A DNA stretch of 64,000 bases from NCBI GenBank assembly GCA_002269645.1, contig NIVC01002295.1, positions 62,001-126,000 on the forward strand. Reading direction: 5' to 3'. The translations under genes were made by a program, and so were the position numbers. Each line of letters starts with the position of its first letter. Position 1 is the first letter of the stretch. Positions 1 to 62,307 of the stretch are shown here, piece after piece. The notes beneath the pieces are model-generated. The model ran no database searches. It was not told where the DNA came from and saw nothing but the letters and a program-made list of their open reading frames with translations. Source of the DNA: Macrostomum lignano (lineage: Eukaryota).

Positions 1-59
1 TCAATGGCATCCTGCAGTCCGTTGAATGTTGACAGCGATTGTATCTGACAGACTTTGGG

Positions 60-493
60 GATGCGTGAAAGGCAGTCCGCTACTACATTTGATTTGCCTT
101 TCACATAGTTGAGAGTGAAGTTGTAATCTTGTAGCGCTAGAATCCACTTCTGAAGTCGTTTTGAAATTGGCTGCTTGTCACTGAATAGACTCTTGAGTGG
201 CTGGTGATCAGTGAAGACGTGGAACTGTTGATAAGAAGCGTAGAGGAACACGTGTAGCTTCTTTATTGCCCAATAGATGGCGTATGCTTCGCGTTCGAAT
301 CGGTGGATAGCGTTGTTCAATTGAGCTTAACGTCTTAGAGATGTAGGCAACCGGGCGTTGGTGGTTGCTGTCGTCTAGCTGTGAGAGTACTGCTCCAATG
401 GCGGTATCCGAGGCATCAGTGTGAAGGAAGTACGGTTTTCGCGGATTTGGATGAACCAGTAGTATATCCGTAGAGAGAAGTTGTTTCAGCTTT
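60..493 (-). pseudogene. pol: RNase H domain of pol (one apparent 1-nt insertion near 300)
   Basis: Manual translation: FSTDILLVHPNPRKPYFLHTDASDTAIGAVLSQLDDSNHQRPVAYISKTLSSIEQRY, then after a frameshift EREAYAIYWAIKKLHVFLY..FHVFTDHQPLKSL..KRLQKWILALQDYNFTLNYVKGKSNVVADCLSR. Confidence 0.9.
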
Positions 494-1435
494 TCAAAGG
501 CTGTTTGCGGCGTTTGTCCAGACGAATTTGTTGGGTTTTGAAGTGTTTTTGATAATACTCAGAAGTGGTTGTACTACTCGTGAGTAGCCAGCAATGTGCG
601 TTCGGTAGAAATTTGCAAGTCCAAGGAAAGATTGTAGTTGTTTTACCGTTTGAGGCACAGGGAAGGTCTTGATTTTCTCGATGAGGCTGGGTGCGGGTCT
701 AATGCCTTGAGCAGAAACCACAAATCCAAGATATTGTACCTCTGTTTTAGCAAAGATGCATTTTCGTAGTGAAATTCGCAATCCATGATGTCGTAACTTT
801 TGGAAGAAGCGTTCGATTTCTTTGAGCATGCCGGTGAAGTCTTCGGCGATGAGCATGACGTCATCCAAGTAGGCAATCTGATTTGGAGAGTCAGCTGTTA
901 ACAATGCTACAAGACGGCACATTAAGCTAGGACTGGACTTGAGTCCTTGAGGTAGTCGATTGAATTCCCAAAGTAGGCCGTTGGGTGCAATGAACGCAGT
1001 GTATTTTGTGCTTTCTGGATCGATCCGAACTTGGTAGAAAGCATCTGCTAGGTCACAGAGTGTGTACAGTTTAGCGTTTTTCAATCGATGTAGCAAATCC
1101 GGAATCTTAGGAGGTCGGATGCTAGGAGCACGAATTAGCTTGTTCAGTTTTCGGTAATCCGTCACGAGTCTTAGTTGTCGGCGACCTTGAGCGTCGAGCG
1201 TCTTCTTTTCCACGAGAAGACATGGACTTGAGTATTCAGATTCACTCGGACTGATGATTCCTTTTGACGGAAGTTTTCGATAGTTCGTCAAACCGTTCTT
1301 GTAGTCATGAGCGATTGGATAGGGTCTGGACGTGACTGGCTCAGAGTGTGGGTGTAGATGCAGGTGAGCCGTGTATTGGGTAGAGCAACCCATGTCGGTT
1401 GGCAGTAGTGCCAAGACGTCACGGTACTTGTTCAT
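494..1435 (-). CDS. pol: Reverse transcriptase domain of pol (fragment between frameshifts)
   Basis: ORF 494..1435 contains SPCLLVEKK, LRLVTDYRKLN, DLADAFYQV, FNRLPQGLKSSP, AYLDDVML, KCIFAKTEVQYLGF and LQSFLGLANFYR. Confidence 0.95.
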   Translation of the reverse strand: MNKYRDVLALLPTDMGCSTQYTAHLHLHPHSEPVTSRPYPIAHDYKNGLTNYRKLPSKGIISPSESEYSSPCLLVEKKTLDAQGRRQLRLVTDYRKLNKLIRAPSIRPPKIPDLLHRLKNAKLYTLCDLADAFYQVRIDPESTKYTAFIAPNGLLWEFNRLPQGLKSSPSLMCRLVALLTADSPNQIAYLDDVMLIAEDFTGMLKEIERFFQKLRHHGLRISLRKCIFAKTEVQYLGFVVSAQGIRPAPSLIEKIKTFPVPQTVKQLQSFLGLANFYRTHIAGYSRVVQPLLSIIKNTSKPNKFVWTNAANSL

Positions 1436-1785
1436 TAGAGTAACTAATTGTTCACTCTGCTCGTTGAGAGGTGCTGGTTGGCTTGCTTGAGTTGAGTACG
1501 AATCATGTCAGTCGTTGGTGTTCTTGCTGCAGCGTGCGTAGATTGTTGATTTGAGCTGCTGGTCGTACGATGTTGTAGTCAGACATGTTAGCCAGATTTC
1601 CAATGACTTGTTGAGGATGCAAGGTTTGCGTTGTCAGCGACGGTTGGCAATTTCCACAGTGATAGTTTGTCCGTCCGGGTTGACAGAAACAAGGCAAGTT
1701 GGTATCATCAACTGGTGTTTCTGGATCGTGTGGTCCTTAGGGACGAACAGGACAGGAATCGTTGGCTCATGTCGAGAAGAGAGTT

Positions 1786-2263
1786 TCAGCGTGACTTGGT
1801 GGCGTTGTCTGTGGTGGTAACTCTAGCTTGTTTTGCATCACCGCAGAGGTTTCTTGCAACTGTTGGATGGAGTTGAGCATCGTGCAAATTGCTCATTGCC
1901 AGCTTAGCTGTCGCTTTCGAGTAGTCGAATTGTAGTGGTATTCCCAGTGACTTAAAGGTTTCTACTCCTAAGAGCAAATCATAGTCAGCGTCGGGGTGTC
2001 GAGCACAAAGGCCGATATCTTGTGGTTGCGTCCATCGATTTCGAGATCAAAAGTGCCTTTTTGTTGAGGTTTAGTTGTTGTCCTCCTGCACAAATGGCGT
2101 TCATGTTGGTGTCTTGTAGTGGTACTCGAAGCTTCTTTGGCGAATGCCGGTGAGATGCAGGAGATCGAGGCGCCGCTGTCAATGAGGGCGGTGCATCTGT
2201 GTCGAGTATGCGGTGCGTTGCGGCACACAGTTGATCATAGTTGGCTGTTGTTAGATGCTTCAA
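1786..2263 (-). pseudogene. pol: Retropepsin aspartic protease of pol (frameshifted)
   Basis: ORF 1968..2228 has RCTALIDSGASISCIS. The C-terminal motif (D)MLLGVETFKSLG continues in ORF 1786..1977. Confidence 0.85.
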
Positions 2264-2398
2264 AACAAAGGCGTATGAGTAGTTTGCTGGCCATTTTGGA
2301 ACTTTGGTTCTGGCGGTGGTCTCCGTGGTGGCGGAAGGGTGGCGCGAAGTTCAATCGTTTCGATGGGTGCCGAAGTGTTGGCGCTTGTCTCGGTGGTA

Positions 2399-5176
2399 TC
2401 AGTTGCTGTTGTTGGGTAGTCGTTTCGTGATTCCACTCGAGTTGGAGTTCGTTGTTGCCGCAGCACTTGTATAGTGTGCGTTCTGCCGTAACGGATGGTG
2501 CTGGCGACCGCAGAGTCGGCCAAGATTGCACACGAAGATAATAACGGCAATGTAGACGATTACAGCTGCTGTTAAGACGAACTTTTCTTGATAGTTTGCG
2601 ACTAGTCGATCCCAGTTGAATATCGACGAAGACCATAGATTGAAGAGAGCTAGTTTTGAGTCCAGGAATGCACTGTCAGCATGTGCTGTTCTGTGTCGTG
2701 TTCGATTCGGAAGTTTGAAAACTGTAATCAGAAAATCGCGAGTTTGCATGAACTGGTGCATTAGGTCGGTCACCGTTATTGGGCTACGAAGTGAAGTATA
2801 ATTGATATCTCCCATAGGTTTGAAGATGCTCTCGGAGACGGAAGTTTGCAAATCGGACAACCGATAGTTTTCATCGGATCTGACATTAGCGGTTGTGGGT
2901 TCAAATCTCGAAAAATTTAGTGTGGTCTTGAATAGCATCGATTGTTTAGGCAGGTAGTAGTATGGGAAGGCGTCGCATGAGATTAGAGCTGGAGTAGCTG
3001 TGGAGACAATACGAGTCGTTGTATCCAAAAATCCAAGAACAGTATAGTTTTGTAGGCGGAATTCCAGTGGGGGCGCGTGAAGCATTGGTTCGTCTTGTAC
3101 TTTGGTTGGACAAAGCGAACTGATGTAGGGTTTGCACTGGTAGACGAAGAGGTATCCAGCAATGGATCTAGCTCGCAAGAAAGGATCATTTAATAAGAGT
3201 CGAGCAGCGAGCGTTGGTTGTGTGTAGTATAACTGTCGATTGTACTTGAGATTAGTTGCGTACATCATGCATTGTGTAGTTGCAGCTGCCTCTGTACTTG
3301 GAGAAGGTCTTTTCGAGCTTTACTAGCAGCTCCTTGTAGTTGTCCAGCAAGAAGTTCAGCGGATGCGAACGTTGATGAAAGTTGCGCAGTAGAGTTGCCT
3401 GAAGGGGCTGCGATGGTTTTGTCATCTGTGCTTCGCTTGTTGCGTGGTAGTAGTAGGAGATCCGGTTGACTACCTTGTGGTTCGTGATGTGGAACTGCTA
3501 GATTCGTATGAATAGAAGCCAGTTGTGGATTGTTGTTGTCGCTGGTGAGTTGTGTGAAGGTTGAGGTTGCAGACTTTGCTGGTGCACTGGTTGTGCTGCT
3601 AGAGGTTGAGGTTGTTGGCGGTAAAGTGGTGGTGGTACGAGGTTGTGTCGTCACTTTTGTTGTCGTCGTAGTTGGACTGCTGTCGTTGTTGCTGCTGAGG
3701 TTGTAGCAGTTGTGGTTGTTGAAGTTGTCGGTGTTACGGTTGTGGTAGGTATTGTTGTCGTTGAGCTGGTGGTGTTGTCATTGTAGTCGGTGGTGTTGTT
3801 GTTGTAGTCGGTGTGTTGTCGTTGTAGTCGTGGGTGTTGTCGTTGTAGTCGGTGGTGTTGTCGTTGTCAAAATTGTAGTTGTTGGTGTTGATTTTGTAGT
3901 AGTTAGTATCGTAGTTGTTGGCGTCATTGTTGTAGAAGTGCTTGACGTCGGTGGATGATCAGGTCGTTCTTGTCGTAAAGGTTGCGGCGGTAGGAATTGT
4001 CGTGACTGTGTTGTCGTAGTGAAGGATGTTGAGTCGTCGATTGCTGAACTGGTAATATAGTTGGTGGCGTTGGTAGTATGGCTGGTGGTGAACGACGTTT
4101 TTGTCTCGAAGAAGTGGTTTCTTCGCTAATTTGAGGTTTTGGAGTAGCTTCTTCTAATGGGCTTCGTAAGGTGGCGAGAAATTCTGCTTCTTTGTTGTCG
4201 AGGATGTCTACGTATAGACCTTGCGTTGAAAGGTACAACGTCTTACGGACGCCAGTGCAGGTGAGAGTGTGAGTCGACGGCACTGGGTTGAAGGTTAGTC
4301 CCAATGTTTGGTCATTAGTTAAGAACAAGCCGGAGTTTAAGTTACCTTCAAGAGTACGAAATGGTTTTAAAGGACAATCAGCGAGCGGTGGAGGTGTCCA
4401 AATAAGATTTAGATGTCTTGGTCCTTTCACGTCAATTTGGTAGATTGCTTCAGTTTCCAAAGGATCCAGGGGGATGTTAGTATCGGCAAAGGTAGGTTGA
4501 AAGCTCGCATTTCTTGTGCAGTTGTTTTAATTGTACAAAATTTGTCGGCGAGTTTGCAGTTGTCATTGGGAAGGACAAAGATTCCATTTTTTGATCTGCT
4601 GTTGAGTAGGCTGGGATTCCGGTAATCACTGTTGTTACTATTTGTTCTGAATGGGAACAGGAGTGCAACGCATAGCATTTTGCGTGTTGAATGTCGATTG
4701 CAGGCGTTGGATAGACTGAGTTGACGCAGTCTTTAACACTAATGATCCATCAGGCGATAGCTTTGTTCGTGCCCAGTTTTCACAATCAGCTTGAGTGACT
4801 GGTTGCGGTTCCAACTCTACCAGGGCGGATGTCCAGGTTCTTATCACCGCCTTATCACATCTAATAGTGATTTTTTCGCGGAAACAGACAGTCATAACCA
4901 GGGAACTGGTTTCTACGTTCGTTGTGTAAAGTTCCAGTTTCAACGGGAGTGTCGGCGTTGTTTGGTGTTTGAGCTGTTCGCAACGGATCTCATGTGGTAT
5001 CGTGAAAATTCGTGGGATCTGGTTGTACGGACAGACCATTGGTGTGTCAATGAAGCCCTCGTGAGATTGTCTCTCAATCGATGGTGGGGTTGACGTCGTT
5101 ACCGGCGTAGCGTTGGCTAGTGCGAAGAGTGAAGTTGCTAGGCACAGGAGAAAAAGTGTCAGTAGTGATCGGCGAA
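2399..5176 (-). pseudogene. env: Env-like class III (herpes gB / chuvirus GP / rhabdovirus G-like) fusion glycoprotein, split across several frames by indels
   Basis: Signal-like segment RRSLLTLFLLCLATSLFALANA (~5110-5176). Cys-patterned ectodomain (VCPYNQIPRIFTIPHEIRC; VCFREKITIRCDKAVIRTW..QPVTQADCENW). Furin-type sites RQKRR and RNKR. gB-like helix AGQLQ..(C)MMYATNLKYNRQLYYTQPTLAARLLL..RARSIAGYLFVYQC. Sequons NST, NYT, NFS, NYT, NRT. C-terminal TM FVLTAAVIVYIAVIIFVCNL (~2520-2582). Confidence 0.75.
3590..3960 (-). repeat. Thr/Pro/Ser-rich mucin-like coding repeat inside the env-like gene
   Basis: Plus strand is (gtt/gtc/gtg/gta)-rich, giving ACN codons on the minus strand (TTTQPRTTTTLPPTTSTSSSTT and similar). 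Confidence 0.8.
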
Positions 5177-7019
5177 TTCCGACGGAAGCTTTCACGGTTT
5201 TCTCGCGGTTGTTGTTGCTGGTCGGTGGAGTGTAGGTGTCAGTCATTCTTTCAACCGTACAAAGGCGGATAGAGTTGATAGTCGCAGAAGCAGTAGTCGG
5301 TTTTTTGAGTAAGGATTTCAGCTGCTTAGCGTCTCCAGAGTAGCGAATTTCGTTTCCAAAAGTCGGTGGGCGTTCATCAACTGTAGCAATGTGCATCAGT
5401 TGGGCAGACTCGGGAGCGTCGTGAGTCGTCCATCCAATCTGCGGCTGTTGATTCCATCCTGGGTGGGACGTTTCAGGGTCCTGAGCAGTGATGGCGCGTA
5501 TCGGTGGATATTGTTGTTGCGCAAATCTCGGAGGTTGTCGTTGATTGTTGGCGCCGTTGTATCGAGGCGGATAGCGTTGCTGAGGCCGGTTTCCATAGTC
5601 TTGACGGGGTGGAAATCGTGATTGTTGTGTTGCCGGTGGACCGTAGCCTTGTGTACGTTGGGCTCGTAGTCGGCACTGGTTAATAGAGTGTCCTGGTTTT
5701 CGGCAATAGTTACAGGTCAATCGTGGCGGTCCCTGCTGGTAACGATTTCGCGGGGCATCAGAGCCGTATTGGGCTGTGTTCCTTCGATCACTTGAGTTAG
5801 GTCGGAAGGGACGAGGTTGTTGGTCATTCCTTCGACGACAGTCGGTGGCATAGTGTCCAGGTCGACCGCAATGAAAACAAGTGGGCTTCTGTTGCATATT
5901 AGCGATAGGTGGCTTGGTTTGTGTTTGCAGGGAGGCAACCACCTGCTGATTGGCTTCCTTCGTCGTTTTTTCTAAGGTAGTTAGACGCTCTGTGAGAGCT
6001 TTCAAGTCAGTGCCATCAGAGTCCATGGTGGAGTCGCGGATTTGTTCGGCGCGGATGGCCTTGTTGATTAGCGTACTTTCCGTGGTGATATTTTGCTTCA
6101 AGAGTTCTCGTTTGATGTAGGGTAGAGCATTATTGATAGTCGTAGCCATCAGGGTAGCAAGGAAGTCTCGGTTGCGCTGGTCGATGACAGCTTGGTTCGC
6201 GGGTGGTGTTTCCGGACCGGCACCTTCCGGAAATTCTTCCGGTATTTCCGGCATAGCTGACCTGAGCTTTCGACGAATATCGGTGAAATAAGACAGGAAC
6301 GGTTCGCCGTACTGTTGTTTCCGGGTTGTTGCATTATGCAGCGTTAGAGCCGAGCCAATGGTTACTTCCCGAAGGCGTTGAGACAGTGCCTCAATGGTGG
6401 CTGGATAAGAGGCTTGGACTGCGGCAGAGAGGCGACTATATTCGAGTTTAAGAAGGTCATTCAGTAGTCGCGGGAAGAGCCGAATCTTTGCGTTCTCCGA
6501 TAGTCCAAAGGAGCGTGTGATCAAGTCGAACTCTTCAGTGAAGGAACGGAAGTCATGCATTTGGTCGATTCCTTTCAGGGATTGACGAATTTCAGCAAGA
6601 GCAGTAGCTGAGACGGGATGGTTTGATTGCAATTGCAGACTGCGGTTCATAACATCAGTAAGTTCACGGACAGCATTTGTCGCTGCAGCATCAACATGGG
6701 GAGCGCCGTCCTGATCAGCCATATCTAGAGTAGATTCTTCAGCAATATCGTTTGGGGCTTGTTGAACTGTTTCGTCCGCGTCTGTTAGGATGGAACTGGG
6801 TGCTGGTGAGTGTGCACGGTTGTGTTCAAAATGATCCGCGAGAGGGTTATTAAACTCAACGTTATTTGGTATAAACAGGTTAGGTACTGGTGAACTATTT
6901 CGTGGGAGCTGTTCACCTATTTGGCGGTCAGAAGTTTCTAAATTTTGTTCAGGGGGTCTGTTAATATTTGAGCTTTGAAAAACTGGTCCGGAACGTAAAT
7001 CTCGGACAGGTGTGGTCAT
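4638..7019 (-). CDS. gag: Gag fused in frame to the Env-like N-terminus (likely ATG at 7019, MTTPVRDLRS)
   Basis: Single ORF 4638..7046. Capsid-like helical region (FRSFTEEFDLITRSFGLSENAKIRLF..RKQQYGEPFLSYFTDIRRKL), knuckles CFHCGRPGHYATDC (~5838-5879) and CNYCRKPGHSINQC (~5673-5714), a Q/R/P-rich linker, then a hydrophobic signal and Cys-rich ectodomain with no intervening stop. Confidence 0.9.
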   Translation of the reverse strand: MTTPVRDLRSGPVFQSSNINRPPEQNLETSDRQIGEQLPRNSSPVPNLFIPNNVEFNNPLADHFEHNRAHSPAPSSILTDADETVQQAPNDIAEESTLDMADQDGAPHVDAAATNAVRELTDVMNRSLQLQSNHPVSATALAEIRQSLKGIDQMHDFRSFTEEFDLITRSFGLSENAKIRLFPRLLNDLLKLEYSRLSAAVQASYPATIEALSQRLREVTIGSALTLHNATTRKQQYGEPFLSYFTDIRRKLRSAMPEIPEEFPEGAGPETPPANQAVIDQRNRDFLATLMATTINNALPYIKRELLKQNITTESTLINKAIRAEQIRDSTMDSDGTDLKALTERLTTLEKTTKEANQQVVASLQTQTKPPIANMQQKPTCFHCGRPGHYATDCRRRNDQQPRPFRPNSSDRRNTAQYGSDAPRNRYQQGPPRLTCNYCRKPGHSINQCRLRAQRTQGYGPPATQQSRFPPRQDYGNRPQQRYPPRYNGANNQRQPPRFAQQQYPPIRAITAQDPETSHPGWNQQPQIGWTTHDAPESAQLMHIATVDERPPTFGNEIRYSGDAKQLKSLLKKPTTASATINSIRLCTVERMTDTYTPPTSNNNREKTVKASVGIRRSLLTLFLLCLATSLFALANATPVTTSTPPSIERQSHEGFIDTPMVCPYNQIPRIFTIPHEIRCEQLKHQTTPTLPLKLELYTTNVETSSLVMTVCFREKITIRCDKAVIRTWTSALVELEPQPVTQADCENWARTKLSPDGSLVLKTASTQSIQRLQSTFNTQNAMRCTPVPIQNK

Positions 7020-10000
7020 TAACAAGAATTCAATCAATAATTTCAAGGCAACAATAGCACAAAAGTGTAACTAATAGCAAAGTAGAGTGTCAAATTCAAA
7101 GTGAGCAAACGGCAATGGCTTTCAGGGTTGCGGTTGGCGGACTGGCTGGGAAAGGGAGAAAAGGAGAGACTGTGTAATTTTTTAACTGTGATCTGCGACG
7201 AGCTTTGAAAATCGAAGTAATTTTGAATTGAACGGCCTTTTGATCGGTTCTGAAACTTTGAATTTTGAAATTTTGAACTCGGAAATCTTGAATTGAACTG
7301 CCGTTTGATCGGTTCTGAAACTTTGAAACTGAATTTGATAAAGGAGCTCCTGAATGTTGAACTAGACGGACATCAGTGGTGGCCAATAAAATCGAATTTG
7401 TATCATTGAAATCGGCAGTTTTCTTTTTCTTGAAGTCGGCAGTTTATTCTTTTGAAGTCGGCAGTTTTCTTCTGAGAATTTGTTCTGGCTTTTTGAATTT
7501 CGAATTTGAATTTTGAACTATCTGACGAGTTTCAGCTAGGGGGGTTGATTTCATAATTTTAAGCAAGCGTAGAGTAATGTTTTTGTAGTTTTGTAAATTT
7601 GCTATTTTTTAATTTTTGAAAATTTTATTATTTTTATTGATCGGACTGATCATTTTGCAAATTTTAACATGATAAGAGCACTACGGATTATACGAAATAA
7701 ACTATTAGCAATGGCATTGTTTTTGTATTTTCAAGTTTTATTATTTTTTGCGATCTAATGATCATTCTTGAGCTTTGTCATAAGCGAAGGGGATATGGGG
7801 TTACCAAAAAGCTCGCGCCACTGGCAGTATGGGGGAAAAATTGAGGTTATTTTGGTCTTAATCCATCATGCGAAACGGGAGGGGGCTAGGGACAGATCCC
7901 AGGGGAAGTCGGTTGTCAGAGAGTGCGGAAAAAACATCGCTGGGCCGGTGATGAAGTGGCATGATAAGGCTGGCCTGGACAGTTTGATGAGGAAAAAGAT
8001 TTTTTCGTGGGAAACGAAGTTGATTGATGGCTTTAATCAAGAAAGGGGATCTCTCTGGAGGGTCAAGTAGGCACGCAAAGTCTGATGTGGGCAGTTTGTT
8101 TAAGATTAATATTTATTGGAGGGAACTGGAGTTGATTAAACACGCAAGAAATTCCCAGCATCCCGAATGATCCATAGAAGGCAACTGCCAGAATCAGCAA
8201 TCCGAAAAAAAACTTGGGTCGATGAGGATTTGATGGATGGGGCTCGTGGGGTTTGCAAACAGTGAGTTTGGAGTGTTTAATCAAGAAAAGTAATGGTGGG
8301 CTAGGCAAGCGGTCTACGAAAATAGGAAAAGTTTTCCGGATGAAGCACGCAGGTTCGGCAAACAGTTGGTTGGGGCTTTAATCAAGGAAAATGATGAATG
8401 GTCAGGCAAGCAGCCTGTCTGATAAGCGAAAAAGTTTTCTGACAGCAAGAAATTGGTGGCTCCAGAGTTTGATTAATATTTGCTGTAGTGACTTCGTTTG
8501 AATAGCTCGTCAGGTTTTTTGCGTTTTCGTTCTTTCTTTCGGGCGCTTAACGGCGCAGAGAATCTGAGATAAGCCAGTTTTCTAGATGTGGCCACACACT
8601 GGGAAAAACCGAGGAGGAAAAACGAATGGCGCAGTCGCTTTGGAGAGTCTCATACTTGTATGAGGAAGTCCAGAGCAAACGTTGCTATTCTGTGGAAAAG
8701 CAATGAAGAAAGAGGCGTCCAACATTAAATAAACTTGAACAATTGATGATGCCGCGGTCTTTTGAAAAATCGAAGCTTTGAAGCTTTAACAATTGAGGAT
8801 CCGAATAACTGAATTGAATTTCTGCATTGAAGCTCTGAGGCTTGAGAATAAGAACTCGATATCAGACGTTCGACGACGTTTCTTGAATTGAAGTGAAATT
8901 GAAATTGTTCCGGAACGATAATTTATCCCGGGTAGCATTTTGACGTCAATTTGCGGTTGCGTTGACGTCGCAAAAATTACCTTCGCAAATCTATTCACCC
9001 CAGCCCGTCTTCGTTGATATTGTAGTTTATTTTTGCATAATTAGATGCCAGAGTCAATATGCATTTATATTCATCATTTTGCTAGCTCAATTATACCTGT
9101 AAAATAGCAAAGAAGTAACGTAAAATATTCGTTGAAAGTAGGTTGAAAAATCAACGTCAAACTTTAGTCATTATGGAACCCAAAATTTGACGTTTCTATG
9201 CTGCATTACTATATAATAACGTAGATTGAATGATTTTTATAACACTGAAAAAAGTAAGGGAAAAAGTAAGGCTCGTTTTTTTACAGTTTTATTTTGTTAA
9301 TACGTATCGTTAAAATCGTATATTTTTGAATAATTTGCTGCATGCTCAATCATGCCGATCAATGGGGGTTGTTTTTCACTAAGCTGTGTCAGGCAGCTAG
9401 GTATATGAAACTTCACGGTGATACAACACATCTTTCTGTTTGACTGAATTTTATTTTACATCTATATTTTGGCGGCCTTAAATATACCATAAGAAGTTTG
9501 ATGTTAGAAGGAGATAAATGCAATAGCAAAGCATAGCTAATGCAATGGTCTAGCTACTAATGATAATTAGCTAATTTAATTATAGAATCTTTTATTAAAG
9601 TTTCTAATTTTCCGTATACTACTTTACCTTATCTCATTTCTTATTCAGTACTGTATGTGATTTTTTATTCATAGGAATTATAAAGTAATATATTGGGCTA
9701 TATAGGCCCCTAAAATACTGCACTGATTAAAATTTACAAGTGATTAGAGTTAGGCATAATTCCTATCAGAATAATTATTGCATGGAAATTGAATTCTTAC
9801 CTATCAGACAACAAAGAACTGCTTGATTTTGGTGTCAATCTTAGGCCTAGCCTGGGATGTACAAAACTTATTAGTTAAACCAGTTTATTAAATAAACCAG
9901 TATCAACCTAATGAGTCTAAATTGATATTCTGTTCTAATTTTTGCTGGCACTAGAATTCAAAACTGCATCCAAGGTCTAATTTCAGGATGCCATTTTTTA

Positions 10001-10029
10001 ACCCAAAATAAAAGGAAAAAACAAGATAT

Positions 10030-10260
10030 AATATCCTATATACTAAAAATGGTCTGTCTGTGTCTATCTATCTATCTATCTATCTATCTATGTGATCGAT
10101 TAGAGAAAAAATGGCTGGACCGATTTTGTTCAAACTTGCACTGTTCGATCAGAAATTTTCCCGTGACTTCATATCTAAATTTCCACTTTAGGATGCAATT
10201 TGAAAGGTCAAGATTTACTAGCATCTCTAAAAAACATTAGGCATACTTGATATGAAGTTA
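10030..10260 (+). mobile_element. Possible non-autonomous Helitron/DINE-like 5' fragment nested in the CACTA element
   Basis: cctatatactaaaaatggtctgtctg followed by (ctat)n and ggctggaccgatttt resembles the 5' end-microsatellite-core layout of invertebrate non-autonomous rolling-circle elements; no 3' hairpin identified. Confidence 0.35.
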
Positions 10261-10444
10261 CTATTTTTTGTCTTGGTTTGATAAATATTTAGTGGGCCAC
10301 CTATCATGAGTTTTTAATATATACAAAGCATACTGTCTATCCATTATTTATATATGTAGCTATTTCATGTTAGCATTTTATATAATATTTAGAGTTTCTT
10401 GGTTAACTGATTGAAATCTTTAATAACTTGTACGAGTACTACCA

Positions 10445-10790
10445 GGGGGCCATAGCCCAGAGGTAGCGCAGCTGCTCTGGTGGGCCAGTGACCTAGGCTC
10501 AATTCCAAGTGTAGTCACATTAATTTGTGGCTGAATTGGAATCTTGGCTTGGCTCTGCTTGTGCAATTAATGGCCTTGAGAGCCAAACCCCCAAGGCGCA
10601 GTGAAGTGTACATGCCTAACGATAAAATAAAGTTAGGGTGGCTGTACACTCCTGTGAGAGTGTGTGCCTGCATATGTATCCGCGCGTTTGTATGCCTGCT
10701 CAGGGGAGCCGGCGGAATGGGCAATAATGCCTCTCACTGGTTGTGTGCTTATGTCGCTTAAAGTGCGCCAGGGTGTACAAATATATAAAG
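10445..10790 (+). mobile_element. tRNA-derived SINE-like insertion in the CACTA element (3' end approximate)
   Basis: GGGGCCA start, A-box-like TAGCCCAGAGG (10453-10463), B-box-like GGCTCAATTCC (10496-10506), followed by a unique GC-richer body in AT-rich context. Confidence 0.5.
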
Positions 10791-10851
10791 TTTAACAACA
10801 CTTTTTTAAATAAATTGTATACATATACTGCCTAAATGCTGCCTATTTCAG

Positions 10852-12852
10852 ATGGCCACTTGGGTGAAGAAAAAGAGAACAGGAGAGAGGTTGCTACTAA
10901 ATGCCATTAGGGATACCAGTTCCAGCTCTCATGACGAGGAAGAGGGCATTTGTATGAAAAAATCATCATTGCCCATTGGAGCAGGTTGTTCTAAATGGAC
11001 ATTGGGTAGTCAACCTGAGGAAGGAGATAATCATCAGGAGGATAGTAATAACAATTCGCCATCTGAATCCGTCTCCTCCGATTCAGAGACTGACGACTAT
11101 GACGACCATGAATCTGATGTAGATCTGAGTGAGGCTTTGAAAGAATGGGCAATATCCGACAACATCCCACAGGCCTCTTTGCGACGTCTTCTGGCTGTTC
11201 TGCGCAAGAAAGACCCATCCCTTCCTATTGACCCAAGAACGCTGCTTGACTCTCCCCAGGTTGTATTAGGAGTTAAACACGTTGATCCAGGTAGCTACTA
11301 TCATTTTGGGCTCCTGAATGGGATTAAAAGGCTACTTGACGATGTGGGCTTTGAGAATAATGTCAACTTGAACCTGTTTTTAAACATCGATGGTGTACCA
11401 CTTTTTTCATCGACTGTGGACGGCTTTTGGGTGATTCTAGCCGCATTTCGTGAAATTCGGAATTCTGTCTTTGTCGTTGGAATCTACCACGGCAGGGCAA
11501 AGCCTCAGAGTGCCGAGGATCTTCTCACGGATACTATTGAAGAGTTAAAGACGCTGGAGCAAAATGATTTGGAGATTCGACCCGGTGTGAAAATTCTCCT
11601 TGCGTGTGTTTGCTGCGACACACCCGCACGCGCTTTTGTCAAGAATGTCAAAGGCCACTCTGGCTATTATGGTTGTGACCGTTGCATTGCGAAAGGTATA
11701 TACATTTGTAACCGTGTTGCTTTCTCTGAGAATGGTACTCTCCGAAGTGACGCCACCTTTCGCGACAGAACTCAACCGGAGCATCACCACGGACCGAGCC
11801 CCTTTGAATCCTTGTCTATTGACATGGTGGCTCAGTTTCCACACGACATGTTGCACCTTATCTGCAAAGGAGTGACACTGAAGCTGCTGGAAGTATTAAG
11901 CAATGGTCCAAATAAGTACAGGCTCGGCCAGAATGAGAAAAGGTACTTTGATCAGCTTATAAAAGAGACCTGCAAGGTTCTTCCTTGTGACTTTGTTCGA
12001 AAGGTGAGCCCTATTCGCCACCTTCACAAATGGAAGGCGACTGAATTGCGACTTTTTACAGTGTACATCATTCCGTTCGTCATCCCCAAGGTTGTACGTG
12101 ATTCAAAGCTACAAACTATATTCATGACGTATTTCATCGCTATCTACATCATGTGCTGCGAAAGGAAACAATACCAAGGAGCGCAGAGCGTTGAATACAT
12201 TCGCCGCCTTGTGTCATATATGCACGATCTCCTTCGCGAGGCTCTCGGAAATGCATTTTTCACATACAATATTCACAACCTTCAGCACCTAGTTGATGAC
12301 TTCAACCGGTTTGGTCCAATAGACACATTTAGCAACTTTAAGTTTGAGAACTTCTTGAGATTCATCAAGAAGAAGATTCGATCGCCCAGTCAACCACTGA
12401 ATCAGATTGTCAAGCGAATACATGAGAGTGGACAGTTTCTTGGGCAGCGTCCTGTATCCCTATTGGGAATAAAGTCCCTGACACCCTTGCAACCCATCAT
12501 TCGTGATGAGGGTGTAGCTTACCGGCGACTCGTACTGAATGATGTCAACACCATCCTGAAGAGGAAATCTCCGGATTCATTCGTCTTAACCTCTGATCGC
12601 AAAGTCTTCAAAGTTTCTCATTTTGTGAAGGAGGGCGACGATATCAGGGCCATTGGCCGGCTCTTTTGTAGCCACGACAACTACTTTCTATTGCCGTTGC
12701 TGTCCATGGATTTAGACATTTTCAAAGTGTCTGAATTGTCGCGCTCGGTTTCTGTCATACCTGTTAAACATATCATGTGCAAAATGTTCCTCTTTCCAGA
12801 CGACGGTGGCCACCAGTTGGCCATACCACTTGCTCATACTTTCCGTCAGTGA
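10852..12852 (+). CDS. CACTA/EnSpm DDE transposase, 666 aa, uninterrupted
   Basis: Motifs NIDGVPLF, CCDTPARAFVK.VKGHSGYYGCDRC, HDMLHLICKGV, WKATELR, YNIHNLQHLVDD..RFGPIDTFSNFKFEN. The ATG directly follows a cag, so an upstream exon is possible. Confidence 0.93.
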   Translation: MATWVKKKRTGERLLLNAIRDTSSSSHDEEEGICMKKSSLPIGAGCSKWTLGSQPEEGDNHQEDSNNNSPSESVSSDSETDDYDDHESDVDLSEALKEWAISDNIPQASLRRLLAVLRKKDPSLPIDPRTLLDSPQVVLGVKHVDPGSYYHFGLLNGIKRLLDDVGFENNVNLNLFLNIDGVPLFSSTVDGFWVILAAFREIRNSVFVVGIYHGRAKPQSAEDLLTDTIEELKTLEQNDLEIRPGVKILLACVCCDTPARAFVKNVKGHSGYYGCDRCIAKGIYICNRVAFSENGTLRSDATFRDRTQPEHHHGPSPFESLSIDMVAQFPHDMLHLICKGVTLKLLEVLSNGPNKYRLGQNEKRYFDQLIKETCKVLPCDFVRKVSPIRHLHKWKATELRLFTVYIIPFVIPKVVRDSKLQTIFMTYFIAIYIMCCERKQYQGAQSVEYIRRLVSYMHDLLREALGNAFFTYNIHNLQHLVDDFNRFGPIDTFSNFKFENFLRFIKKKIRSPSQPLNQIVKRIHESGQFLGQRPVSLLGIKSLTPLQPIIRDEGVAYRRLVLNDVNTILKRKSPDSFVLTSDRKVFKVSHFVKEGDDIRAIGRLFCSHDNYFLLPLLSMDLDIFKVSELSRSVSVIPVKHIMCKMFLFPDDGGHQLAIPLAHTFRQ

Positions 12853-13568
12853 GACAGAGCTTACTTTTTAACATACTGCAAAGGTTTGATGTGTCTGCAT
12901 TCAGAAGCAAATGCTATTCTTTAAACTTTAATCATGATACTTTTCTTTAGCTGTTATAATTTTGTACGTAAATTTATTTTAAGGTTCTAATAATATGTTA
13001 TTTTCTTTAATTACGAGCTAGATTCTGTTTCAAAATATTCTACTCATGTTTGAACTTGCAACTTATAGGCTTTTCTGTAAGCGTGTGGCAGCCTTGGACG
13101 TAGATCAACCAGTCGATGCAAAAAATTGAAGCATAGCAGATTGTTTAGAATCTTCAGTGTATACATATAACAGTAGTAATAGCAAAATTATTAATAATAA
13201 TAACAATTTCTTAGCATCAAACCGTCCAGGCCTGACAAGCGTAGCCAATTAAACATACTACTACTGTAATTTCGCCTCCTCAAAGTATAATTAATAAAAA
13301 TACTCGTCGCAGTATAATATGGCCGTATTTTTGGCAACTTATTTGGTACTAAAATACATCAAAGCTGCTCTGTTCATCAATTCTGTAGAAATCTGAAAAT
13401 ACAAGTATTGCAATAGTAGATCCATGAATCTGTAAATGTTATAGAAAAGAGCTGTAATAAAATCAGCGTAGATAAGATTATTTAATTTACTGCAGTTTTA
13501 TATACTAATAGAACATTACAACCTTTTTTCATGCATTTGAAGCTCTGAAACACCTCCAGTGTATCACA

Positions 13569-15414
13569 ATGAACACTGCAAAGTATCACCTAGTAAGCTT
13601 CGACGATGGCGCTCAAATTGTGCTGGACAGTTGGCTGTTCCAGGATGAAGATGGCAATGTCTTCTGCCTCCTCCCCAAGACAACCAAAGCTACTCAATGT
13701 CTGCGCAACAAAACTGAACCACACCCATCCTGGAGGGAATTCAAGGTGTCGGAACAGCTCATGTCTAGTGGTACGTTTTTAATGCCCTCTTCATGTCGAA
13801 CAGTGCTAGTAATATAGTATAATAGTATTTATAATTTAGATATATTCAATTTAGATATAATGGTGAATCTATTGGGTAGAGTCAATGTTGCCGTCATTTT
13901 TGCCATGCTGTACTCCTTGAGCTCCCCGCAGCTCTCGACATCGAGTTGAACGCCCTGTGGAAGTCCACAACACACACAGACAAAGGTCGATTGTAGTATG
14001 GGAAACCATACACACTGAAGGCTGGCACGACTCAACCTAAAAGCGCATGTATTTTTCGTAAATATGATTGCAGATTTTGCCTTACCCTTTCAGATAATCT
14101 GAACTTTCTCACTTATCGGCTGAAGCGATTGGAAGAAAAGAATAGTTTGAGTGAGACAGAAGTTGAGAGGAAACGACAAAGGCCGGCAGTAGAGAGGCTG
14201 GTTGATGGCTTTAGGACATCGTCGATTCCTGCTTCATCTTCCACTAGATCCAAAAAGACATCGAATATGCCACCGTCGTCTTCGGCTTCGGTTGTCGTAT
14301 CTGAGCTTGCGTCACCACCTCCGCCTCCAGTTTTTCAACTATCGCCTTCACCACCTCAAGCATCAGTTACCGTACACGATACATTCGAGAGCCAATCTGT
14401 GCTGGAATCTGCTACACAGGATCCTGACTTGAGGAGAAAGAATGAAACTGCCAGTTGCAACCGTCACTGCTGTCACATGGAGAGTATGTTGCCTTTTAAT
14501 TTGATTTCATCTGACTTTACTCTGACAGTTTCAGTTTTTTGTATTGTATTGCGCTCGCGTGATACATGTCTCTACTCTGTTCTAGTGGTTATTTTACTAC
14601 CTATTTGTAAATTCATGCCAGTGTAAACATATGCATGCGCTTGTATTGTTACTGCAGAGTGGCTGGCGAAGCTCTTTACCGAAATGAAGGAAATGAAGGA
14701 AGAGATCCGAGCGTTAAGGTGTGGCAATACTACTGATGGCAATGGGATGTTGCACCAGTTGCCCATGAGCAGTGTAAACGGGCTCCTGTCCTTCGCCGAT
14801 GAGATAGCCACATGTACGGAAAAGAAGTCTGTCTTGGTGAGAGAAAATTTATAGTTTTCTTACGTATGATCAGCTTCCTTTTTATCTACGAGCTCGTATG
14901 TACTTATTATTTAGTTGCTTATTTTCACATGTATTCCTGTACCTTTGCCGTATTCGTGCTACCTGCACGTATCGATCACTAGTCCTACCAGTAGCTTGCA
15001 AAAATCTGAATTTTAGATTCACTACCTGTCCGGCTTCGCTGATGATGGCGTCAGTATCAGCCGAGTGACGACCACTCTGTTGAAGAAAATTGCCCTGCCA
15101 TCTGTGTTAAGTATGTTTACAACAACTGGCCGGCAGGATTCACGCATATTTCCCATCGGGCTTACTGCGGCCATAGAAAGTGAGTATGTTCGAACATGTG
15201 AAATCAACCTCTGTATGTATAGTCGCTCATTGTGACGCATGAAATACTAATTGGCTCATCACTTTGTTTCACAGGAGTCATTCATAATAACAAGCGATTG
15301 AGATCTCGTTCACGAGGCGTTGGAGCGCAACATTTTGTGGCCGAGTCCTTGAAGCATATCAAACTCAAGGAGAAGAAGCGCGTAGAGACTGCGGATGACG
15401 TGAGGGAAACTTAG
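13569..15414 (+). CDS. CACTA accessory (ORF2/TnpA-position) protein, 5 exons, ~357 aa
   Basis: Exons 13569-13770, 14094-14483, 14658-14836, 15017-15179, 15275-15414, all GT-AG and summing to 1074 nt (divisible by 3). N-terminal YHLVSFDD..IVLDSW..C..P..P.PSW domain, S/P-rich linker, coiled-coil (KLFTEMKEMKEEIRAL), and a C-terminal helical domain resembling DUF4806-type proteins. Confidence 0.75.
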
Positions 15415-15630
15415 ACTTCGCTGTTGCTCTTCCTTCATTTTGGCTTCCTTCATCTCTCATGATGCCAGCTCATGCTGGAGAACTATAGTAGCTTGAATAT
15501 TTTGTAAAGTTCAATCATGCAGCTGCTATCATACCTTTCATAAATCCATCAATTTTGACCATCTTACGAGCGTACATGGATATCATGTAACTGTATTGAA
15601 AATGGAGCTTGAAAACTGGTTCTATGACTA

Positions 15631-16498
15631 GGCCGTATGAATAAACTGAGCAAATTCTCAAACTCAAGCAAATGCTCAGGTCAATAAGAATAAGTTGAGC
15701 TTTTGCTCATGAGTAAATGCTCGTGAGCATTTACTCCGACTCATGAGAAAATTCTCAGCTGCAGAGCAATTACTCCAGTCAGTAAGAATAAAAACATGGC
15801 CATGGACAAAAGATCGGAGCAATTGCTCACAAAATGTTGAGACAGCTACCAGGTACCTAGCTGACTCAACTGGCAAGCAACTGCAGTTGAATGGCGGAAT
15901 TTATGCCTGAAATCGCTCCTGCAAGGCGCAAGCTCTACCTTGAAAGGCTTTCGTCTGATGTCCTTCGAGATTGCGAGTATCAGTCTTGCCTTCATATTGG
16001 CCAGCTTTTTGTTTATTTTTTTTGAATCCGTGCTCTTGCCACTAAGCTCCAACTCGCTCTGGATAGATAGCAATGCTGCCTTTTTCTTCTCCGCGATACC
16101 AGGCGTCTTTGCTTTGTCAGCAAGACACGGATGGCGTATTACGATATTCACAAACTGCTCGTCGCTGGCATCATCAGTATCCATTTCAGATCAGTGCTTG
16201 CTAAGCTGTGTTTGCTATGCTGAGCTATGCGGCTATGCAACACTATACTTAGCTTCGATCGTTAGTGAGTGCTGCCGCTTCTCTTGCTGCTGCTGCAGAT
16301 CTGCCTGTCTATGGCTTTAAGCAGCCAGGCTGCTGCTCAAGCGGTTGAGCAATTACTCTGAGTCTGTGTTTTTTGTTTATTCATACTGAATTGTTGCATT
16401 TGCTCTGACTCTGAGTATTTACTCAGCCTCGAGAAAATGCTCCAGCTCAGAGTGCGAGCATTTGCTCAAGAGCATTTGCTGATTTTATTCATACGGCC
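15631..16498 (-). mobile_element. Non-autonomous PIF/Harbinger-like element (868 bp) nested in the CACTA element
   Basis: 15-bp TIR GGCCGTATGAATAAA at 15631-15645 and its reverse complement at 16484-16498; TA on both flanks; subterminal GAGCA/TGCTC repeats; internal MADF-like ORF. Confidence 0.7.
15846..16184 (-). CDS. MADF/Myb-SANT-like DNA-binding protein, 112 aa (possibly truncated or spliced)
   Basis: FVNIVIRHPCLADK..EKKKAALLSIQSEL..DSKKINKKLANMKARL matches the trihelix MADF pattern of Harbinger second ORFs. Confidence 0.65.
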   Translation of the reverse strand: MDTDDASDEQFVNIVIRHPCLADKAKTPGIAEKKKAALLSIQSELELSGKSTDSKKINKKLANMKARLILAISKDIRRKPFKVELAPCRSDFRHKFRHSTAVACQLSQLGTW

Positions 16499-18470
16499 TA
16501 TTGATTTTGCATTGCCGAGTTCTAAGAAATAAATTATAAAATGGGTAACTTTAAGCATAAATAAAAAATTTAGACTTTAGTTGTGTAAATAATAAAAAAG
16601 CAACCATTAGATTTGAACGCATTTAGCCAGAGTCCGTAGGTATAGCGTTACCTGCGCCAAAAAAATTTCCAGAATGTGAGCACGTCTTCAAGTGTTCTCT
16701 ATGAACAACATGCAGCTATAGCTACACACAATCATTTAAATTTATTACGCTTGTGTTGCTTCCTTTTTGTTCAATAAAACCAAATATTGTTTTGAACTGT
16801 CGTTCGTGCATTGTTCCACATGTCTACTGTTCTATTGTTTTTCACTGCACTGTTTTGTACTATTTTACACAATGATACTATCACTCATTTCCACTTCGAT
16901 TGTTTCCAATAGCTAATATTCTAATATAGTATTCCATACTTCTAGTATTGCAAATTTCTACTCCGTAGCTTTTTATTATTGCTCTACTTTCTATTATTTT
17001 ACAGGCTACTAGCTCTGTTGCTATGCTCGTAATTGTCGTCATCCTTGGATTTGTTCCATGCCACTGTTTTCTACATTAACTATATTCTGTTTTGTTTGTA
17101 CTAACTTTTTGGCGCTATTTTCCGTTCTCCATCTTTTAATCTAATTTATTTACCGTTCCTTTTCATGAATTTTCATTTGCTAATATAAGAATATACTTGT
17201 AAATTACAATTTGTACCCGGTATATCAAGTGTGGTTAGTGTGCATTACTTATATCCACACACATAATTCAATAAGGTTGACTTCAGAATGCAGAGATAAC
17301 TTTCAATCATAAAGCTAGTAACATTTATTTTCTTAAAAGACATCATAAAAGTCATTTTGTACATTGAAAAAGCCATTTTTATACGGTAAAATTTGAGTAA
17401 ATTTTTTACGTCAAAGCAACGTCACAAATCTAGGTCAAAATTACGTAAAAAATATCGACAGAATTGACGTCATCTCGACGTCATAGTTTGACCGATTTTC
17501 AACGTCATTTTGACGTCGCGCAACGTCACTTTGCTACCCGGGTATTGACTTTCATGGATCCTTTGAATCTGAAAAAAAAAACTTGAATCAGGTCTCAGTG
17601 CACTGGACAAAAACTTAGAACCGATTTGAATTCTGAATTTGAATTTGAGAGCTCGTGATTTTCGATTCATTCTTCGAATATGTATTATTGACAGTCTCGA
17701 ATGCTCAAAGGGGAGGGGGGGGAAGCCAGTCCAACCGTTCACACCCATCAGCCACGCCTATAGCTGTCTACCCCATGCAGGGCATAGCGGCTATTGTGGT
17801 GAAACGCATCGGAGGAAAAGTACGGTCAGGGAACCAGTGAAATATTTTAAAATATATGTTATTGTTCTTCTTCTGGTCTCTCACTTCTATGGCTCTTGTT
17901 CTACTTCAAATATCAATGTGAGAGCCAAATAACTGAGGCGGCGGATTCAACTGACTTTTCCTGATGATGCAAACACTTGATGGTAACTTACAGACCGTTG
18001 TATTTGATGGTCACAATCTCGAGATGTTTTCTCACAAAATATAATGTCTAAGGTGGAATTCCAAATAAGAAGCTCGTTCGATTTAAGTCACAAGGTGTTT
18101 CTAGTTGTTCGGGTGAACCGAAGGTTCAGTCTATTGTGAAACGTGGATTGAGTGTTGGTTTGGCTTTAGTAAGTCGACTTATAAGTTTTGGTGTTTGGGT
18201 TGAGACCCTAACTGTGTCAATCAAAATAGTCAAACGAGGTAAGCTAGGAGAATGGCGAAGGAGAGGCAAGGGCGAGGAGAGGCGGAGCGAGCAAAAGGCG
18301 AGCTTCTTGCTTGGTTAACATGAGCTTTTATAGTACTTTTCAGTCTTGATCGCATTGGATGGTACATAACTGCTTTTCATTGGTTGAGGTTGGGGTCGTG
18401 TCCTCAGCTTTTGCTATTTGGAGCGCATTCATTGGTTAAAATACATTCAATCTGGATGGGAGCTTTCTAG

Positions 18471-21400
18471 AGCCAAAATGTATCACTTCACATCGGCATC
18501 GCCGGCCCGCCGAACAGCTTCGTGTTCTTGACTGGCATCGATGCCAGCGTGAATCTGATCCGCAGCGGCCAGGACATCCTTGAGGACACCGTGACGGGCA
18601 AGCTGAAGGGCAGCGTTCGCGCCTTCAAGAGCTGGATTCGCTGGTCTCGGGTGTTCACCACAGGCAGCGTGCTGAAGGTGAGGCGCGCCTTGCTCAATAA
18701 ACTTTAATCTACCTATAGGTAATAACTGTGTTAAACCTGACGGCTGATTTCCATTTTTAGACGTTGAATCTGCATCTGTTAACTGACGGATTTTTTGAAT
18801 TGGGTATTGCTAAAGCATCAGATTATATATTTTGTGACGGAATACGTAATCTAATATGAATAAATTTCTAAATTACTTGTTAAACTACTTGTTTTAGAAA
18901 GGTACCAGAGACCCATTTTCGAACGGAGGCGTCTGTTCGATGAAGGATCTCCGATGATGTCTCTTTCGATAAACCGAGCCCATGCGCCTGAAGGTCCACC
19001 ACCTGCTCAGCCTGAGAAATCGCAGAAGAGGACTTACTTTCCCGAGACCATGCTCTGGACTATGGTGGAGACTGAGTGAGCCTACTGTACTTGGCTTTGT
19101 GTGCGGTGATCCTACTCAAACTCGAACTCTGTTATCCTACTCAAACTCAAACTCTGTGATCCTACTCAAACTCGAACTCTGTGATCCGATACTCAAACTC
19201 GAACTCTGTGATCCTACTCAAACTCGAACTCTGTGATCCTATACTCAAACTCGAACTCTGTGATCCTACTCAAACTCAATCTCCATCAATGCAGTGCCTC
19301 AGGCCGGGCCAGCGAATCTCTGCAACTGCCAGACACCATCACGAGCTGGGATTTGACGGCGTTCGGCATCTCCAGCCGGCACGCCATCCAGACGGTGCAG
19401 CGCCCCTTCCAGGTGACGAGCTTCAAGAGATTCTTCGCCCAGCTGACGCTGCCGCACTCGTTGATCCGCGGCGAGTCGCTGCTTCTCCGGGTGCTGCTGT
19501 TCAACTTCGACTCCTCCAATCGGCTGACCATCAACGCCACCCTGTTGATCGACTCGAAGGCCTTCGAACTGACGGCGCTGACGGCCGCTGGACAGCCCGC
19601 TGAGCACGCGATTGTCAATGTGGAGTCAAACGGCGTCGGATTGGCGGTTTTCGGCCTGCGACCGAAACTGGTCTCCGAGGCGGCTGCGGTCACCGTGCGG
19701 GCCAGGTGAGCGGGGTTGAGACTAGAGATGTGAATAGATTAATGAGAAAAGCGGATAGACTGATTAAAGATGTGTGGTAGATGTGTGGTAGATGTGTGGT
19801 AGATGTGTGGTAGATGTGTGGTAGATGTGTGGTAGATGTGTGGTAGATGTGTGGTAGATGTGTGGTAGATGTGTGGTAGATGTGTGGTAGATGTGTGGTA
19901 GATGTGTGGTAGATGTGTGGTAGATGTGTGGTAGATGTGTGGTAGATGTGTGGTAGATGTGTGGTAGATGTGTGGTAGATGTGTGGTAGATGTGTGGTAG
20001 ATGTGTGGTAGATGTGTGGTAGATGTGTGGTAGATGTGTGGTAGATGTGTGGTAGATGATGTGTGCCGCATCAAAGCGCATACACATAGAGTTCGCCGCA
20101 TCCCTCAACCTGGCAGAGCCACCTGGCCAGACGGTCGCGCCGAGGTTGACGAGGTGACGCGTACGCTGCCGGTGCTTCCGGAGGGCCGCACGGTGAGGCG
20201 GGCTGTCACTGCCCTGCTGAGCCTGCGGGGCGATCCAACCGGTAGCAATTCGTCCGCCGAGACGGTTCAAAGCGCCGAGATGGTGGAAATTTACTGGCCG
20301 GAGGCGGTCCAGGCGGACGGGTCGATCCTGGTGCCCGGCTCCCAGCTCCTGTCCGTGTCGGTGGTCGGCGACGTCCTCGGCCCGGCCATGGACGGCATCG
20401 GCGGGCTGGTGCGGACTCCGCGCGGCTGCGGCGAGCAGAACATGGTGGACTTCGCTCCCGCGGTCTTCATCTATCGGTACCTCCGTTCGGCGGGCAGCGA
20501 CAGCTCCGCCACGGCCCGCCTGCGCCAGAAGGCCCTGGACGCCATGCGCACCGGCTACCAGAGGGAGCTGACCTACCGACGGGACGACGGCTCCTACAGC
20601 GCTTTCGGCAAGGCCGACGCAGCCGGCAGCGTCTGGCTGACTGCCTTCGTGCTCAGCGTGTACGCCCAGGCGGCCGAGTTCATCGCGGTGGACCCAGCTG
20701 CGGTGACGGGCAACTCGATCATGTTCCTGCTGAGCCGCCAGGACCCGTCTGGCCGCTTCACCGAGCCCGAGGGCGCTCGGGTGCTGGACACCAGCCTGCA
20801 AGGTGAAGCCGGCAAAGCCTCTCTTGGAATGTCGGCCTTCATCTGCTCCGCACTGATAGACGTTCGAGACGCTGTGGAATTGCTGCCGGCCCTGCGGACG
20901 CCTGAGTGGCCGCTGCTGCCCGTGTCCACCGCGCTGCGCCGCTGCGTCGACCTCTTTAAGCTGGAGTTCAAACAGCGGCTGGCCGATTTTGACACGCGCG
21001 ACATGGCGCTGGCCGCCTACTTCTTATGGCGCGCCCAACTGGCTGGCGAAGGAGGAGACGCGACGAAGAGCCTGGCGAAGCGCGTCTGGGAGGCCTTCAA
21101 TGCCCGCGCCGAGAGTGACCACTCGGCGAGACTGTACTTCTGGAAGGTGAGCTTGCCAGGCGGGAACTCCTCTGGACAGTTTTGTAGGCATTTTGCAGCG
21201 GTCAGTTGGATCTTTCAAACGCTGCAAGTTGAGCAGAGTTGGTTGCCAGGTTAGTGTTCAATTGACTAATCCCGATGAAAGCGTTGTCACCGTGACAATA
21301 GTCGCTAAAAGGTCATTGCAAACAACTCACTGGTGACTCTAAGGACTTCTGGGCGGCTCATGCGACTGTTTAAAAACTCAGACGACTGCAATACGATTGT

Positions 21401-30547: not shown

Positions 30548-51616
<21,069 letters not shown>

Positions 51617-62273: not shown

Positions 62274-62274
62274 T

Positions 62275-62285
62275 TGGTGGCAGCG
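62275..62285 (+). promoter_or_regulatory. Primer-binding site, tRNA-Leu-like
   Basis: TGGTGGCAGCG immediately after the LTR end; complementary to the ..CGCTGCCACCA 3' end of eukaryotic tRNA-Leu. Confidence 0.75.
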
Positions 62286-62307
62286 AGAACCCAGTGCAAG
62301 TGCACTC

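Follow-up and report, generated by a model that had tools for sequence, protein, structure and literature searches.

The stretch analysed here (the window: 64,000 nucleotides of the Macrostomum lignano contig NIVC01002295.1, assembly GCA_002269645.1, positions 62,001 to 126,000 of the forward strand) carries on its minus strand an LTR retroelement which is very probably a recently amplified member of Ty3/gypsy (Metaviridae) of the GAG-ENV-POL type. Its Gag-Env-PR-RT-RH-IN polyprotein would cross the ER membrane twice, and Pol would be packaged via the tail of Env. The preliminary description had taken this layout to be undescribed, which does not hold, as the main text of Chary & Hayashi (eLife 2026, PMC13524379) already reports that nematodes, bryozoans and flatworms, among them M. 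lignano, have GAG-ENV-POL Ty3/gypsy elements whose env is of gB type. Since the gene order has been published, the window does not hold a new system, and the element is a new family of a described kind.

On the minus strand, Gag with two CCHC knuckles, a hydrophobic segment, a Cys-rich ectodomain, a TM helix, protease, RT and RNase H follow one another (Table 1), and the integrase lies 3' of RNase H outside the window, at L009:7591-9000. The order Gag-Env-PR-RT-RNase H, as originally proposed, is borne out by the stop-to-stop frame at 4638-7070 (-), whose 810 aa run from Gag through the hydrophobic segment into the start of the Cys-rich ectodomain, and by the knuckles, the TM helix, the DSG motif of the protease, the RT and the RNase H. 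Past about 4640 the env coding sequence of the window copy is present as fragments, which reach to the TM helix. The length of about 2.7 kb first given for the part from the signal segment to the TM helix is correct, and about 650 nt of env encode a Thr/Pro-rich mucin-like repeat and not folded ectodomain. The 5' LTR and the 3' LTR (L009:4213-4865, outside the window) are identical at 653/653 positions without gaps, and the same 4 bases border both LTRs as a target duplication of 4 bp. The primer-binding site matched host tRNA-Glu genes in all three tested, which were located by a looser tRNA pattern search; the first tRNA pattern match to this site was rejected, as it is not a tRNA gene. The DNA transposon nested in the leader has a 680-aa transposase-like frame at 10810-12852 (+) and a copy of about 100% identity on contig C83, and the sister retroelements are without this insertion. 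Four of the eight sisters examined have an extra 2.1 kb or so in the leader at about 7780-7829.

Table 1. Features of the retroelement and of the transposon nested in it (window coordinates unless stated otherwise).
Feature	Position	Strand	Remarks
5' LTR, TG...CA, 653 bp	17838..18490	-	compared with the 3' LTR
Primer-binding site, 14 nt	17823..17836	-	complement of the host tRNA-Glu 3' end
5' leader, long	7020..8926 + 17542-17822	-	broken by the nested transposon
Nested 8.6-kb DNA transposon	8927..17541		foreign to the retroelement; inverted termini
Gag region of the polyprotein	5184..7019	-	CCHC knuckles starting at 5879 and 5714
Hydrophobic segment, putative signal or signal-anchor	5097..5183	-	in the Gag frame; same position in P0001
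Env N-terminal half, predicted class III fusion and PH-like domains	4107..5096	-	frame-broken
First furin-type site, R-x-K-R	4095..4106	-	
Thr/Pro-rich mucin-like insert	3445..4094	-	
Second furin-type site, R-x-K-R	3433..3444	-	
Env C-terminal half	2594..3432	-	long central helix from about 3369, and crown domain
Env transmembrane helix, putative stop-transfer	2491..2593	-	
Env-to-protease linker	2190..2490	-	P[ST]AP position about 2375, unreadable in the window copy
Aspartic protease	1790..2189	-	in pieces in the window copy; DSG motif 2189-2166
Reverse transcriptase, Ty3/gypsy type	494..1507	-	Pfam RVT_1, E 3e-25
RNase H, two pieces	3..558	-	integrase, 317-aa ORF and 3' LTR beyond the window in L009
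Accessory ORF, 317 aa, AT-rich	outside the window in L009		between integrase and 3' LTR

The order PR-RT-RH-IN within Pol is that of Ty3/gypsy (Metaviridae), and among solved RTs the RT is closest to that of Ty3 (E 2e-42), ahead of foamy virus (4e-33) and MLV (4e-26). The TG...CA LTRs, the short target duplication, the tRNA primer site and a purine tract agree with membership of Ty3/gypsy, and the env, which is of gB type with a signal or TM segment on one side and a TM on the other, lies between gag and pol. Belpaoviridae of the Atlas, Cer and Anakin types were rejected on the two knuckles and on the position of env 5' of the protease, and Pao-type Pfam matches were absent. The 317-aa ORF was found in the window family only and gave no match in Pfam or PDB; a poxviral/Ulp1-type cysteine protease was considered for it and rejected, its Atlas values of 0.81-0.83 being at chance level.

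A viral fusogen had been suspected at the internal position, and profile, Pfam and Foldseek matches indeed show the predicted Env to be a class III fusogen of the gB/nyamivirus type. The env profile, made from 19 segments (18 from the genome, G000, and P0005), matches EBV gB collinearly with E 1.4e-13. Pfam Monjiviricetes_fusion is matched by 15 of the 19 aligned members, the row of the window family itself excepted, and neither the env pieces of the window copy nor the env of sister L026 gave a Pfam match when searched singly. The env model based on the alignment is confident at residues 1-304 and 592-753 with disorder between (mean pLDDT 58.8), and its Foldseek matches include HSV gB (E 1.6e-14) and Midway nyavirus G (E 6.9e-21), the latter being the best match to a viral fold; the TM-scores are low, 0.26-0.27 by query. 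A fold predicted without an alignment had a pLDDT of 33 and was discarded. The top rows of the Atlas matches to env are class III fusogens throughout, and with scores of 0.87-0.88 they are therefore taken as leads only. The C-terminal half of Env is homologous to domains III-IV of herpesvirus gB.

Both R-x-K-R sites bordering the mucin-like insert are present in all 11 copies scored (another copy yielded no row), and the distance between them varies from 209 to 244 aa by copy. According to the EBV gB profile match the insert is placed directly before the domain III helix, the position of the furin loop in several gBs. Of the 19 env rows in the alignment, three have the mucin-like loop, namely those of the window family, L028 and L036, and most of the other rows have one basic site at the equivalent position; in L028 and L036 the upstream furin-type site is reduced to R-x-x-R. 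The three loop-bearing rows cluster together with an SH-aLRT of 99 in a quick env tree that gave long-branch warnings, and this clustering suggests that the loop was gained once.

Purifying selection maintains env. The pN/pS among copies, calculated from distinct single-base codon variants against one reference with codons near gaps excluded, is 0.14 for the env N-half, 0.08 for the env C-half and 0.40 for the mucin insert, and it is 0.12 for linker plus protease, 0.27 for Gag, 0.03 for RT, 0.09 for IN and 0.31 for the 3' ORF. Both halves of the ectodomain, including the one with the fusion domain, are near the level of the integrase. From the sequence, an infectious retroelement as suggested in the preliminary description is plausible. 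The env could also be a retained, non-infectious passenger that is used inside the cell for membrane anchoring or vesicle export, which would make the element a retrotransposon and not a virus. This we consider unlikely: close copies are confined to one organism throughout their 20 holders, as such an intracellular role would allow, whereas the selection on both ectodomain halves and the retention of the furin-type sites in every copy scored argue against it.

The family is built on one continuous Gag-Env-PR-RT-RH-IN frame. In the M. lignano protein PAA86625.1 (P0001), the closest relative that has a name, a single chain of 2,852 aa comprises Gag, env, PR, RT, RH and IN. In G000 the P0001 sister family has stop-free frames of 2859-2866 aa at four places, and those of more remote families measure about 2,460-2,540 aa. 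Within the window family, five of eight sisters have one uninterrupted frame of 962-2086 aa that leads from within env into protease or RT, and four of nine copies can be read from the start of Gag past the signal segment. Copies at 96-98% identity are numerous, yet all nine that were examined carry breaks in the frame, which lie at differing places. A full HMMER protein search gave six relatives; word-index protein searches gave no match, a negative of low weight. None of the 20 holders of close copies has a record typed as RNA; three presumed-RNA runs cover the element, a coverage that is not counted as a sign of expression.

The single frame might be incidental, with Gag, Env and Pol expressed separately by splicing or recoding, a reading to which we give still less credit than to an intracellular passenger. 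Most LTR elements make Gag in excess, and a 1:1:1 polyprotein would give no such excess. Depth falls at 7297-7904 in two presumed-RNA runs and not in the DNA run, a weak indication as it is taken from contigs, and some splicing of the leader is therefore possible. Canonical splice joints from gag to pol or from leader to env were absent from the four runs, which is again weak since contigs drop rare forms, and the sole long joint, 613-4921, has non-canonical ends and occurs in one run only. Separate expression is also difficult to reconcile with a frame that is unbroken across both env junctions in sister families which are 22-46% identical in env. Expression as one polyprotein is the preferred reading.

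The env is consistently at this position in sister copies, a point which the preliminary description had proposed to test. At least 16 places in G000 match a 3.5-kb query from the gag end to the protease at 96-100% (40 of 206 candidates scored), and the env N-half lies upstream of the family protease at 21 of 22 places, the 22nd of which retains the TM end of env. The length of the element in the family is 14.7-16.9 kb. In three of the eight sisters fetched with flanks the LTRs are simple pairs, 99.85-100% identical and with 4-bp duplications, which sets the length of these elements at 14.8-16.9 kb, and the remaining sisters ran past the contig or the fetched stretch, or were in tandem; this LTR identity indicates a very recent spread of the family. 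The window copy itself has about 27 small indels from about 4640 onward, each of them against at least six of the eight sisters, and 18 of these sit between 2510 and 1260. Single-base indels make up 309 of the 356 coding-region gaps in the eight pairwise comparisons of the window copy with its sisters. Comparison with reads, which the preliminary description had suggested, found all 30 bins of the tested stretch covered by short-read contigs from four studies, and these contigs disagree with the window at the indel places, at or near full depth. The single-base indels of the window copy are either assembly errors or private decay. These indels and the transposon nested in the leader could recall a nested insertion or an assembly chimera that put an unrelated membrane-protein gene inside gag-pol, but we reject this as next to impossible because the same junctions recur at at least 16 places and in at least six divergent families, contigs in three runs span env into the protease side or run along env, a check for LTRs or a target duplication belonging to env itself found none, and env is homologous to class III fusogens of viruses rather than to host membrane proteins.

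The linker that joins the env TM to the protease is roughly 110 aa long and contains P[ST]AP in nine of 11 locus stretches, as the sole such motif in each, against a chance expectation of about 0.03 per linker; the 11 stretches are not independent and represent about seven families, six of which carry the motif. The motif extends across families 22-46% identical in env; the proteins P0001 and P0008 have it too, as does P0005 close to its end, and L030, L034, P0004 and P0006 lack it. Six of seven further sisters have a readable P[ST]AP, and in the window copy and L003 it is unreadable. PTAP motifs are described as binding ESCRT-I during viral budding (PMC2958808). Three related rows also have PPxY in the linker. 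Gag itself has a PPxY match, and the P[ST]AP of the tail may therefore be dispensable.

In the mechanism that we favour, Gag would remain cytosolic and the internal hydrophobic segment would thread the ectodomain into the ER lumen, with signal peptidase probably cutting this segment and so parting Gag from Env. The second TM would halt transfer, leaving protease, RT and integrase attached to the Env tail in the cytosol, and Pol would be packaged via its tether to Env and not via a fusion to Gag. The structural polyproteins of flaviviruses and alphaviruses have a comparable membrane topology. P[ST]AP in the tail may recruit Tsg101/ESCRT-I and lead to budding, furin would cleave the mucin-like loop at one or both ends, and the viral protease would then liberate RT and IN. 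The enveloped particle would travel between cells, from the soma to the germ line or to stem cells.

The elements described in PMC13524379 are similar to the window family in their Ty3/gypsy Pol, internal class III env between a signal or TM segment and a TM, flanking LTRs and multiple copies. The paper's table has 9 flatworm and 10 bryozoan elements, and its text gives the errantiviruses of Nematoda, Bryozoa and Platyhelminthes as having HSV/gB-type ENV only and cites Sacco et al. 2022 (J Gen Virol 103:1739) for the flipped env/pol order in nematodes. Within the literature searched, the order 'gag-env-pol' is stated in PMC13524379 only. Its bryozoan C2b rows have a motif spacing like that of the window env N-half, as judged by eye on unaligned rows. 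The entry Platyhelminthes_Rhabditophora_Mlig_errantivirus_2 in the same paper has 864-bp LTRs, a span of about 10.6 kb and another primer site, whereas the window family has 653-bp LTRs, a length of 14.7-16.9 kb and a tRNA-Glu primer, and the two are therefore not the same; the size of Mlig_errantivirus_2 appears better suited to a mucin-less family. The main text of PMC13524379 makes no mention of mucin, polyprotein, late domain, ESCRT, PTAP/PSAP or budding, and its figures and repository may show inserts. The NERVs, nematode endogenous retroviruses treated by Sacco et al. 2022, are also reported to have the flipped env/pol order, in another host phylum.

The M. lignano proteins PAA86625.1 and PAA87129.1 (P0001 and P0008; 2,852 and 2,859 aa) share with the window family the single-chain order, the mucin insert and the downstream furin site, and their tail motif is PSAP. 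P0001 belongs to a sister family, with identities to the window family of 40% in env-N, 34% in Gag-envN and 69% in RT, and unlike the window family it has a minimal R-x-x-R as its upstream site. Both proteins are annotated as hypothetical or as RNA-directed DNA polymerase. Herpesvirus gB and nyamivirus/monjivirus G are homologues of the window-family env in sequence and fold, from which this env differs by a shorter core, its place in a retroelement polyprotein and the mucin-like loop of more than 200 aa. The NERVs reportedly have a continuous gag-env-pro-pol ORF, a nyamivirus-like env and accessory ORFs. Atlas virus, a nematode BEL/Pao element, is described as making one polyprotein of about 2,800 aa that includes Env (bioRxiv 10.64898/2026.03.22.711591), but unlike the window family it has the order Gag-Pol-Env, a class II phlebovirus-like env and three zinc knuckles, and belongs to Belpaoviridae. 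Among the papers listed in the literature searches, with figures (for the insert) and most subscription journals outside their scope, none connected a mucin-like insert or a late domain with Gag-Env-Pol elements, and we found no earlier description of the 209-244-aa Thr-rich insert between furin-type sites or of P[ST]AP in the linker from the Env TM to the protease.

It is tempting to suggest, tentatively and with rather less than even confidence, that assembly of the flatworm Gag-Env-Pol elements is unlike that of retroviruses, in that the enzymes would be carried as a tail of Env with an ESCRT-binding late motif situated there, and that a clade of three families has moreover acquired a fast-evolving mucin loop of more than 200 aa at the furin site of its class III fusogen. 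If this is true, the loop would be freed by double furin cleavage or kept as a glycan shield, and an invertebrate retroelement would have an extracellular life and be under host-recognition pressure. The tail motif and the furin-flanked loop predict Env-tethered Pol, Tsg101 binding and a released or retained glycopeptide, and the very young family would make it testable how a single Gag-Env-Pol chain builds a particle.

The retroelement copy carries an accessory ORF in its 3' continuation, which encodes 317 aa and is complete and free of stops in 11 of the 31 matches listed, among which it is restricted to the window's family. Its pN/pS is 0.31. An ORF of about 270 aa with Cys/His-rich stretches, located within the optional leader segment, has a pN/pS of 0.47, from few variants. 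Neither product had a match in Pfam, nor the accessory one in PDB. The Atlas resemblance of the accessory ORF to Ulp1/poxviral cysteine-protease folds is at chance level.

Features of the window and of the retroelement family (unprefixed coordinates, window; L009, locus stretch with the window copy and its 3' continuation; L019, stretch with a further copy)
Feature	Position	Strand	Remark
Accessory ORF, 317 aa	L009:6350-7300	-	Directly 3' of integrase, outside window
Tandem and near-tandem short repeats	7240-7560		Leader, directly upstream of Gag start
Optional leader segment, ~2.1 kb	L019:4822-5652	-	Equivalent to window about 7780-7829
DNA transposon, 8.6 kb	8927-17541		Short inverted termini; nested in retroelement leader
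Host gene fragments	20034-22528	+	GCGEQN-type thioester motif
Ankyrin-repeat protein exons	34921-46927	+	Introns packed with minisatellites
Second, ordinary LTR retroelement, start only	62218-64000	+	

The optional segment is present in 4 of 8 sister copies and is missing from the window copy. Coverage falls at 7297-7904 in two runs that we guess to be RNA, which is possibly to be read as a leader intron. The nested transposon contains a transposase-like frame of 680 aa (10810-12852) with a weak match to DUF4218, and it is found elsewhere as one copy of about 100% identity (contig C83 of the searched genome) and several of 95-98%; shorter non-autonomous relatives are numerous.

Among the other features of the window, the host gene fragments presumably belong to an alpha-2-macroglobulin/TEP/CD109-like gene, and the ankyrin-repeat exons end in a WGR/PARP-like stretch, both judged by eye. 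The Gag of the second retroelement has 303 aa and two zinc knuckles.

Three relatives at the protein level (P0002, P0005 and P0006) derive from assemblies, metagenomic or other. The label of P0002 assigns it to a bacterial MAG, yet its Gag-signal-env layout makes it probable that this is animal DNA in the bin. P0006 resembles, by eye, bryozoan env rows that have been published (Chary & Hayashi, eLife 2026, PMC13524379).

At least six further Gag-Env-Pol families are present on many contigs of the searched genome, with env 22-46% identical to that of the window family and, in several of them, open frames of 2,460-2,870 aa. The window family also occurs as a tandem pair on one contig (L024-L025 on C172), with a 4.3-kb repeat, including LTR and 3' region, common to both. 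The Gag-Env-Pol radiation in this genome far exceeds what the published element table records for Macrostomum, which is one element (PMC13524379).
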